DNA of 64,000 nt from NCBI RefSeq assembly GCF_054482525.1, contig NZ_CM137006.1. One strand, written 5' to 3'. The position numbers and the translations under genes are program-made. Under the pieces are notes generated by a model. That model had not been told where the DNA came from and ran no database searches. It worked only from the letters and a program-made list of their open reading frames with translations. Positions 34,413 to 35,625 of the stretch are shown here, in pieces. Position 1 is the stretch's first letter; each line of letters opens with the position of its first letter.

Positions 34413-35336
34413 TTAACTGTATGCATGTAGCGTACGTTGGCAAAGTGCCGAACGTACGCAATCCTCTTTACCGAATCGGACGATCCCGACCATTTCATCT
34501 TCTTCGAAACGTTCCAGCGCGTCACTTAATCCGGAGCGCACGCCGCGAGGCAAATCGCATTGCGTGATATCACCGTTGACGATAACCGTCACGTTCTCCC
34601 CGAGGCGGGTTAAAAACATTTTCATTTGCGCGGCAGTCACATTCTGCGCCTCGTCAAGAATGACGACTGCATTTTCAAAGGTACGTCCACGCATATAGGC
34701 GAACGGCGCAATTTCCACCTTCCCTATTTCCGGTCGCAGGCAGTACTGCATAAAGGAAGCCCCTAAGCGCCGAACCAGCACGTCGTAGACCGGGCGAAAA
34801 TAGGGAGCAAACTTTTCTGCGATATCACCAGGTAAGAAGCCAAGATCTTCATCGGCTTGCAGAACTGGACGGGTGACGATAATCCTGTCGACATCCTTAT
34901 GTATCAGGGCCTCTGCCGCTTTTGCTGCGCTGATCCAGGTTTTTCCGCACCCGGCTTCGCCCGTGGCAAATATCAGCTGCTTACTCTCAATAGCCTTCAG
35001 ATAGTGCAATTGCGCTTCATTTCGCGCGAGGATGGGCGAGGTATCGCGACTGTCGCGGGCCATACCAATGGCTTCTACGCCGCTCATCTGCACAAGCGAG
35101 GTGACCGATTCTTCTTCACGCTGCTTATGGCTGCGCGAATCCCGTCTCAGCACACGTTTTGCCTCGCGACGAGCTTTGATCACTGCTTTTTGTCTTCCCA
35201 TGGAGAGCACCTTGAGTTGTTTGTATTCATCACACGCGCCGTTGGCAGCGCGATTATGCGCACGAACATCAGAGGGTTGGCTTCCTTGTAAGCCATAGTT
35301 TGCTTTTGGATAAAATGCCGAAAAACGGCTACGCAC
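34413..35336 (-). CDS. phoH: PhoH (phosphate starvation-inducible ATPase, P-loop); long N-terminal form apparently frameshifted
   Basis: 307-aa in-frame ORF with Walker A (GEAGCGKT); internal Met MGRQKAVIKARREAK at 35201 would give 262 aa; an overlapping ORF 35180..35476 is in another frame (see findings). Confidence 0.8.
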   Translation of the reverse strand: MRSRFSAFYPKANYGLQGSQPSDVRAHNRAANGACDEYKQLKVLSMGRQKAVIKARREAKRVLRRDSRSHKQREEESVTSLVQMSGVEAIGMARDSRDTSPILARNEAQLHYLKAIESKQLIFATGEAGCGKTWISAAKAAEALIHKDVDRIIVTRPVLQADEDLGFLPGDIAEKFAPYFRPVYDVLVRRLGASFMQYCLRPEIGKVEIAPFAYMRGRTFENAVVILDEAQNVTAAQMKMFLTRLGENVTVIVNGDITQCDLPRGVRSGLSDALERFEEDEMVGIVRFGKEDCVRSALCQRTLHAYS

Positions 35337-35625
35337 ACCGTTTGCGGCGTCGGTAACACGAGTAAAGAGAGGAAGTGAGAAAAATACAGAGTGACGAAGT
35401 TGCTACCGGAGGAGAAATCTCCGCAAGTGGTGGAGCGTTGCTTAACAAAACATTGTCCAGAACAGGACGTTACCATCCGCGATCTCCATAGTGACTGACT
35501 ATCACTGCCGGGAACTTCCGCTGCTACTTAATAATTACAACAGATCTCGCATCCATTGCAACAATATATTCACTTATATTTAACTATAAAATACCATTTC
35601 AGTGACATTAGTTTCTACTGGAAAG

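Follow-up and report, generated by a model that had tools for sequence, protein, structure and literature searches.

The phoH locus and its one-base deletion

The window, a 64,000-nucleotide (nt) stretch of Escherichia coli DNA (contig NZ_CM137006.1) whose positions serve as coordinates throughout, carries phoH and all of its associated features on the minus strand (Table 1). Two open reading frames (ORFs) were listed at this locus, one opened by an ATG at 35476 and the other, of 307 amino acids (aa), in the frame of PhoH; they run in different frames and share the stretch 35180..35336. The ORF from ATG 35476, referred to below as the leader ORF, lies in the +1 frame relative to PhoH, and its TGA begins 19 nt past the A of the PhoH ATG at 35201. 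The two ATGs are 275 nt apart, which is no multiple of 3, and the span from 35476 to 34413 measures 1,064 nt, as against 1,065 nt (354 aa) for phoH of K-12 MG1655 (b1020). An earlier reading made from the letters alone (the sequence-only reading) had described these frames, their overlap and their positions, all borne out by the ORF listing, and had counted the locus one nt short of a 354-aa K-12 long form; that length agrees with the b1020 record, and alignment finds exactly one missing base. Because its upstream start is out of frame, the window allele lacks the feature that defines two-isoform genes of the K-12 phoH type, namely an upstream start sharing the frame of the internal one.

The product read from MGRQKAV (35201) is matched over the whole PhoH domain by two family models, in each case above the curated cut-off: PF02562 (258 bits, cut-off 27; 6.8e-77; profile positions 2-204 of 205) and the equivalog model NF007827 (512 bits, cut-off 380; 2e-154; positions 1-253 of 253), the latter spanning residues 9-261 of the 262-aa form and residues 101-353 of the K-12 form. 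Both motifs of P-loop NTPases, GEAGCGKT (Walker A) and VVILDEAQ (Walker B), are present, in keeping with the sequence-only reading, which had the short form retain a complete Walker A core. Among the 81 sequences of the survey described below, the first ten PhoH codons are invariant, at synonymous sites too. These invariant sites match an observation on the internal start of K-12 phoH, for which Meydan et al. (bioRxiv 10.1101/520783) report enhanced synonymous-site conservation and which they place, from Ribo-RET in K-12, among the conserved in-frame internal starts. Judged by family models and conservation, the 262-aa form begun at ATG 35201 is the conserved PhoH protein.

K-12 has the same gene, Pho box, upstream Shine-Dalgarno (SD) sequence with ATG, and downstream MGRQKAV start as the window. 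In the pairwise alignment, substitutions are dense over some 100 nt past the upstream ATG, and the next 155 nt or so, up to MGRQKAV, are near-identical (99-100%); the intervening segment belongs to a diverged haplotype, with about 85% identity across 171 nt. Unlike in K-12, the upstream start of the window is out of frame by one base, and no 354-aa fusion is possible. Alignment to related strains had been proposed by the sequence-only reading as the way to locate the indel, and an alignment of 15 Escherichia sequences places it between a run of five Ts and CTCAC, the window having TATTTTT-CTCAC where other alleles have TATTTTCACCCAC, TATTTTTACCCAC or CATTTTCAACCTC. Relative to the in-frame alleles a single base is missing; two old haplotypes, differing by substitution, account for everything else that separates the window from K-12.

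The comparison set within E. coli comprised 5,426 complete genomes. A 1,501-nt region of the locus is 100% identical in three independent complete genomes, PCN033, SCU-102 and 19KM1776. The variable segment of the window type was found at 95% identity or more in 1,954 of the 5,426 genomes (171 nt long in 22 of 22 sampled members), and its K-12 class was found in 3,452 genomes (172 nt long in all sampled members but one). A 61-mer across the deletion occurs exactly in 1,946 genomes (about 36%), as compared with 3,413 (63%) for the K-12-type 62-mer. Carriers of the window-type allele include O104:H4, CE-O153H30, the type strain ATCC 11775 and Escherichia sp. E1V33. Given the 1,501-nt identity in three genomes and the exact 61-mer in 1,946, the locus is not a chance feature; the phoH frame difference is a real, common and old natural allele of E. 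coli, not a sequencing error.

In the identical sequence of PCN033, the NCBI Prokaryotic Genome Annotation Pipeline (PGAP) calls phoH at 789 nt (262 aa) with no pseudogene flag, and the 262-aa form from MGRQKAV is the RefSeq form in every genome checked bar the curated MG1655 record. No coding sequence was placed by PGAP over the variable segment in any listed genome, K-12 derivatives and O157:H7 included. The deletion lies 54 codons upstream of the first position of the family model, and neither a frameshift nor a stop of the kind that marks a pseudogene falls within the family-defined region. The sequence-only reading had suspected a systematic sequencing error, that is, a base dropped at a homopolymer in this assembly; the deletion does adjoin a T5 run, and in the same window a G-run of rutG has also lost one base, by a deletion private to this sequence. 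For phoH, however, the probability of such an error is negligible: it is refuted by 1.5 kb of identity in three independent complete genomes, by the 171-nt class, by exact 61-mers from many projects and platforms and by the same deletion in another Escherichia species (E1V33), and RefSeq sets no pseudogene flag on the gene. Native sharing of the upstream sequence by related strains, which the sequence-only reading had itself named as evidence that would overturn a damaged long form, is what was observed, RefSeq calling the 262-aa form in those strains.

One further indel was seen among the sampled genomes. E. coli EEC_W5 (L089, NZ_CM130020.1) carries a K-12-type allele with a one-base deletion of its own (CTCCT-CGG) and is the sole sampled case of an early stop in the leader ORF, after 44 codons; this deletion could be a sequencing error or a rare variant.

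Conservation of the leader ORF

The survey across species used 80 species-level PhoH loci (of roughly 570 found), which are 93-100% identical over the 262 aa and together with the window make 81 sequences; five distant taxa, Atlantibacter, Shimwellia, Yersinia ruckeri, Serratia and Rahnella, bring the total to 86 from the Enterobacteriaceae and Yersiniaceae. From a conserved SD and ATG, an ORF is open for 70-133 codons in 86 of 86. The start block, TGGAGATCGCG(G/A)ATG, is near-invariant in the 81 and is also present in the five distant taxa, so that a conserved translation start, the mark of an upstream ORF (uORF), precedes the main ORF in all of them.

In 54 of the 81 sequences the leader is in frame with PhoH and forms a stop-free extension of 90-94 codons, while the other frames average 2.8 and 7.3 stops and the chance of openness is about 0.02. 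The other 27 have the leader in the +1 frame: in 22 of them it reaches, after 97-98 codons, a TGA that begins 19 nt past the PhoH ATG, in 5 it closes after 84 codons at a TAA that precedes this ATG by 26 nt, and none ends earlier. The SD and ATG are retained in all 27, every one of which has this +1-frame ORF open (chance openness about 0.025), the two other frames having about 4 stops each and being open in none. Among these out-of-frame lineages are Salmonella, Citrobacter, E. albertii, Kluyvera, Pseudescherichia and the window. At least six independent frame switches can be recognised from the departure of the +1-frame peptide from conserved in-frame motifs, breakpoints not having been formally mapped; in the alignment, both common Escherichia switches are located at T-runs.

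In the distant taxa, the leader ORF has 116 codons in Atlantibacter (end at +68 relative to PhoH), 70 in Shimwellia (-65), 100 in Yersinia ruckeri (-24), 87 in Serratia (-64) and 133 in Rahnella (-66). It is in frame 0 in Y. ruckeri and Rahnella yet closed by stop codons before PhoH, and in frames other than 0 in Serratia, Shimwellia and Atlantibacter. The leader ORF, whether in one of several frames or stopped ahead of PhoH, is thus kept open without regard to the main ORF in 81 of 81 sequences and in 5 of 5 distant taxa. The 98-aa product falls into over 100 protein clusters, almost without exception of 98 aa and termed 'hypothetical protein' where named (Citrobacter, Enterobacter, E. coli), and it matched no family in Pfam or NCBIfam. 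Two records under other names, CACSKA010000011.1 (L012, titled Chryseobacterium sp. 18061) and P0187 (Bacillus amyloliquefaciens), hold phoH of the Enterobacteriaceae type at 92-95% identity and are likely contaminated or mislabelled.

Conservation of the leader shows no three-base periodicity, blocks being conserved or variable at all three codon positions, and the codon pattern switches exactly at MGRQKAV to values near 1.0 at the first and second positions with a variable third. The ratio of nonsynonymous to synonymous substitution rates (dN/dS) is about 0.67 in the extension, as compared with 0.034 in the core. Over the proximal 36 codons, the nonsynonymous and synonymous differences per site (pN and pS) are 0.13 and 0.15, both far under the core pS of 0.40, and pN/pS in all three frames of the proximal leader is 0.8-1.9, whereas the first 20 codons of PhoH give 0.02. 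For each of these three frames, protein-type selection on the extension was therefore rejected. A separate small ORF from ATG 35296 (+1 frame, MAYKEANP) was rejected likewise: its pN/pS is about 1, its ATG is absent in Salmonella and Buttiauxella sp. B2, and in several genera a stop follows two codons in. From these patterns we conclude that selection appears to act on the start and the openness of the leader ORF and not on the peptide sequence.

Because the peptide is not protein-like, the broken lineages are non-random and distant taxa carry a separate leader ORF, the ORF from ATG 35476 is probably a conserved, translated leader ORF whose frame relative to PhoH is free to vary, and not a damaged N-terminus. 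The 354-aa form of K-12, we likewise conclude, would be a leader ORF that runs into PhoH without a stop. The sequence-only reading had described the long form as frameshifted; the frame break stands, whereas plain damage does not, since the out-of-frame ORF is itself conserved across genera and the window ORF is thus not simply a damaged long isoform.

Other readings of the upstream ORF were weighed against this one. The 92-aa extension might be a functional, disordered N-terminal domain, the window allele a natural knock-out of a genuine long isoform and the 98-codon ORF mere debris. Such a loss would agree with an extension that is in frame in 54 of 81 species with in-frame length changes (90-94 codons), with the annotation of K-12 at 354 aa and with a 39-kDa product reportedly described in 1993. 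The Ribo-RET study (bioRxiv 10.1101/520783), which treats phoH as a two-start gene, also agrees with it. A functional domain is, however, difficult to reconcile with a dN/dS of about 0.67 and the absence of codon periodicity, with a PhoH family model that leaves the extension out, and with the leaders of Yersinia and Rahnella, which are in frame but stopped before PhoH; nor would debris be expected to remain open in 27 of 27 sequences over 84-98 codons after the frame switch, old lineages such as Salmonella and Citrobacter included, where other frames carry about 4 stops. We regard the loss of a long isoform as unlikely.

The remaining readings bear on how the PhoH frame upstream of ATG 35201 might still be translated in the window. 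An intermediate 307-aa isoform from GTG 35336 would use the longest ORF in the PhoH frame, which exists and is the form that automatic gene callers choose for the window allele (P0122, 1,357 member sequences), but no clear SD lies upstream of the GTG, only 3 of the other 81 sequences (L005, L006 and L061) have an in-frame GTG or TTG at the same place, 45 codons upstream of MGRQKAV, the region shows no protein-type selection in that frame and PGAP favours ATG 35201. This GTG is probably not a real start, and the isoform is very improbable. Still less credible is recoding, in which ribosomes slipping by -1 on the U-run (UAU UUU UCU) would return to the PhoH frame and make some long isoform from the window allele. 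A -1 slip of the P-site tRNA on U5 would indeed read FSLPLFTRVTDAANG, the open PhoH frame, and both common Escherichia frame switches occur at T-runs; T-runs, however, are simply where replication slippage makes indels. Neither component of a programmed -1 frameshift site was found: a canonical X XXY YYZ heptamer is absent from the leader frame, and the sequence downstream yielded no stimulatory structure. Moreover, the +1-frame ORF is open for 65 further codons to the PhoH start in all lineages, which would be needless if ribosomes left that frame.

Leader elements and a proposed mode of control

Upstream of the leader ORF, the Pho box reported by the sequence-only reading is present at 35643..35626. 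It contains the 18-mer TGTCATCACTCTGTCATC, identical to the site that PhoB chromatin immunoprecipitation sequencing maps upstream of K-12 phoH (PMC10294691), and by this sequence match the gene is preceded by a probable promoter of the Pho regulon. A consensus scan for sigma-70-like promoters returned one candidate, where 0.9 would be expected by chance; it sits between the Pho box and the leader ORF, and the TATATTGTTGCA block at this site is conserved across genera.

Within the leader ORF, 60-nt windows starting at -240 to -195 have across the 81 species a mean C content of 0.32-0.37 and a mean G content of 0.11-0.20, with a C/G ratio of up to 3.1 as compared with 0.6-0.8 in the phoH core. 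The tract is the most variable part of the leader in sequence, its composition being conserved all the same, and this composition is as expected of a Rho-utilisation (rut) site, which the tract may therefore provide.

Two hairpins, H4 and H5, lie between this tract and PhoH. The H4 stem is invariant in 40 Enterobacteriaceae; in a set of 12 diverse sequences its pairing is 96.7%, and Rahnella alone supplies the two compensatory pairs. H5 has both-side changes in 4 of its 7 pairs with 96% of cells paired; its covariation score was reached by 0 of 500 shuffles, and slid controls pair at only 20-52%. H4 places ACAAGGA at its loop/stem junction and GGA motifs flank the leader start, which is a resemblance to CsrA sites in sequence only. 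No family of Rfam 15 was matched over 35180..35650 at E up to 10. In predicted folds, the SD and AUG of PhoH have an unpaired probability of 0.4-0.5, a value that gives no support to structural masking as the reason for coupling. A CATAAT motif (35253..35258), which resembles a -10 element and is situated directly 5' of H5 in the block GTGCGCATAATCG, is near-invariant across genera. An internal promoter at this motif is unlikely: the -35 is poor by eye, the start site would fall inside H5, and the covariation of H5 implies that the transcript includes it.

These elements suggest a course of events for phoH expression. Transcription would begin at the PhoB-dependent Pho-box promoter and probably at a second, sigma-70 promoter, both upstream of the leader ORF. 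What selection would preserve is translation through the roughly 275-nt leader, which could shield the rut-like tract from Rho and could bring ribosomes to the PhoH start by termination-reinitiation coupling, either effect alone or both together. In K-12-type alleles and most Enterobacteriaceae, the stop-free leader would read in frame into PhoH and give the 354-aa long form, the same ribosomes making a fusion protein wherever the leader is in frame 0 without an intervening stop. In the window, the one-base deletion beside the T-run would have shifted the leader to the +1 frame, where it ends at the TGA 19 nt past the PhoH ATG, and the products expected in this strain would be the 98-aa leader product and a normal 262-aa PhoH, with no 354-aa fusion. 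In its general form, the proposal is that phoH in the Enterobacteriaceae and Yersiniaceae may be controlled by a long (70-133 codon) leader ORF whose peptide is irrelevant and which serves Rho protection and ribosome hand-over, the hairpins (one with AAGGA) being sites for a regulator such as CsrA; the 354-aa PhoH would be an evolutionary fusion, for which E. coli is polymorphic (63% fused, 36% unfused). We regard this mechanism as possible rather than probable, and place it below the leader-ORF reading because the PhoH SD and AUG are about half accessible in the folds and coupling is not forced by structure.

Several points weigh against the leader-ORF reading and what has been built on it. 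Two thirds of the species retain the in-frame fusion, and a function for the long isoform is possible; the species representatives are also phylogenetically related, so that the counts given above are not independent events. Among the five distant taxa, gaps of as much as 66 nt separate the end of the leader from the PhoH ATG, a loose arrangement for coupling, and coupling is not obviously required where the predicted folds leave the PhoH start unsequestered. For the window allele, we infer translation from 35476, coupling and Rho dependence from the sequence. Finally, Kim et al. are said to have reported in 1993, from N-terminal sequencing in K-12 and with P1 and P2 start sites, a 39-kDa product with the predicted N-terminus. 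In the literature searched, no paper was found to connect phoH with CsrA or Rho, or with a uORF or leader peptide.

Among known systems, the proposed phoH mechanism would most resemble the control of long 5' leaders by leader ORFs (toiL-topAI, tnaC) combined with translational coupling. In toiL-topAI of E. coli (PMC12121999), a regulatory uORF controls Rho-dependent termination in a long leader. At both loci the regulated gene is preceded by a long 5' leader with an ORF that is translated, or probably so at phoH, where the ORF contains a C-rich, G-poor tract; however, the phoH leader ORF has about 100 codons and is not very short, it is often fused to the main ORF, and any stalling signal or Rho dependence at phoH would be putative. 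In tnaC-tnaA and other leader-peptide attenuators, short peptides act through specific codons or peptide motifs. A conserved upstream start and leader translation proposed to govern read-through into the structural gene are common to both, whereas the phoH leader peptide is unconstrained (dN/dS 0.67) and its ORF reaches the main start. Two isoforms arise by internal initiation in infB (IF2 alpha/beta), clpB and cheA, where the extra N-terminal part is a conserved domain. K-12-type phoH likewise has one frame with two conserved starts and a long and a short product, but the evolution of its extension is nearly neutral, and 36% of E. coli genomes, like whole genera, do without it. In translationally coupled overlapping genes, stop and start overlap, as in many operons; the phoH leader stop, 19 nt after or 26 nt before the PhoH ATG, is within reach of termination-reinitiation, whereas the PhoH start has a conserved SD of its own that is predicted to be accessible, and any coupling at phoH is putative.

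The allele itself is of ordinary frequency; the setting in which it occurs suggests that the phoH 5' region be read in a modestly new way. Such a re-reading bears on an annotation conflict in which the curated K-12 protein has 354 aa, the RefSeq form is of 262 aa in all other E. coli genomes checked and gene callers give 307 or 354 aa. What had looked like damage would be a standing polymorphism that toggles the leader ORF between fused and separate states, and a classical Pho-regulon gene of unknown function would gain a candidate control region made up of the leader ORF, the rut-like tract and two conserved hairpins. Natural pairs of K-12-type and window-type alleles are ready-made experimental material. 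As a general caution, long N-terminal extensions that have a conserved start and an unconstrained sequence may be leader ORFs that lack a stop.

Table 1. Positions of features in the 64,000-nt window
Feature	Position	Strand	Description and source
Pho box CTGTCATCACTCTGTCAT	35626..35643	-	Two CTGTCAT repeats 11 bp apart; PhoB-dependent promoter element
Sigma-70-like promoter candidate	35563..35590	-	-35 TTTATA, 16-nt spacer, -10 TATATT; consensus scan
SD of leader ORF	35484..35487	-	GGAG, 7 nt before ATG 35476
Leader ORF	35180..35476	-	ATG 35476, 98 codons and TGA (35182..35180), 98 aa, starts MVTSCSGQCFVKQRST; ORF listing
C-rich, G-poor tract in leader ORF	35336..35441	-	About 100 nt; candidate rut region
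Site of one-base deletion	35375..35384	-	T5 run (35384..35380), then CTCAC (35379..35375); Escherichia alignment
PhoH-frame ORF	34413..35336	-	GTG start, 307 aa; ORF listing
GTG opening the 307-aa ORF	35334..35336	-	Start doubtful; ORF listing
Hairpin H4	35279..35294	-	GGCUU-ACAAGG-AAGCC; AAGGA motif at loop/stem junction
Hairpin H5	35235..35252	-	CGCGCUG-CCAA-CGGCGCG
SD-like sequence of PhoH start	35208..35213	-	AAGGTG; invariant in 81 sequences, third codon positions included
phoH proper	34413..35201	-	262 aa from MGRQKAV; PGAP annotation, NF007827, PF02562
Walker A	34961..34938	-	GEAGCGKT; translation of short form
One-base deletion in rutG	52905-52915	+	GATGGG-CTGG versus GATGGGGCTGG in PCN033; frameshift

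The rutG frame break and neighbouring features

The window matches PCN033 at 99.98% identity, the exceptions being an IS1 insertion of 768 bp and a single gap. In rutG (ORF about 52747-54074), a G4 run of PCN033 is reduced to G3 at about 52911, which confirms, relative to that genome, the missing nucleotide noted by the sequence-only reading. The gene is intact (442 aa) in PCN033, SCU-102 and 19KM1776, and not one of the 5,426 complete E. coli genomes has the deletion, leaving a mutation private to this sequence or a homopolymer error as its source. The two frame breaks had been taken as a hint of a common systematic cause. As the phoH break occurs in 1,946 genomes and the rutG break is private, they are of different origin, and only that in rutG could be an error.

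At 34377-34395, immediately past the stop codon of phoH, a GC-rich hairpin (AGCCCGG-GCGAA-CCGGGCT) with a T-run behind it looks, as read by eye, like an intrinsic terminator. Further downstream of phoH (32985-33850) are a DUF2726 gene and then a tRNA-Ser, the pgaABCD-ycdT region of K-12 being missing in this lineage. On the other side, a repetitive extragenic palindromic (REP)-like element lies at 35693-35727, between efeB and the Pho box, where the Rfam family naRNA4 scores 33.4 bits, below its gathering score of 59.5. The annotation of PCN033 has a 447-aa hypothetical protein at 40282-41625, between putP and efeU. The efeU gene is annotated as intact in this lineage, and that of K-12 we take to be a frameshifted pseudogene. 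The IS1 element (768 bp, with the InsA and InsB ORFs) is inserted within csgC at 24788-25554, is absent from PCN033 and has about 10 bp duplicated at its junction.

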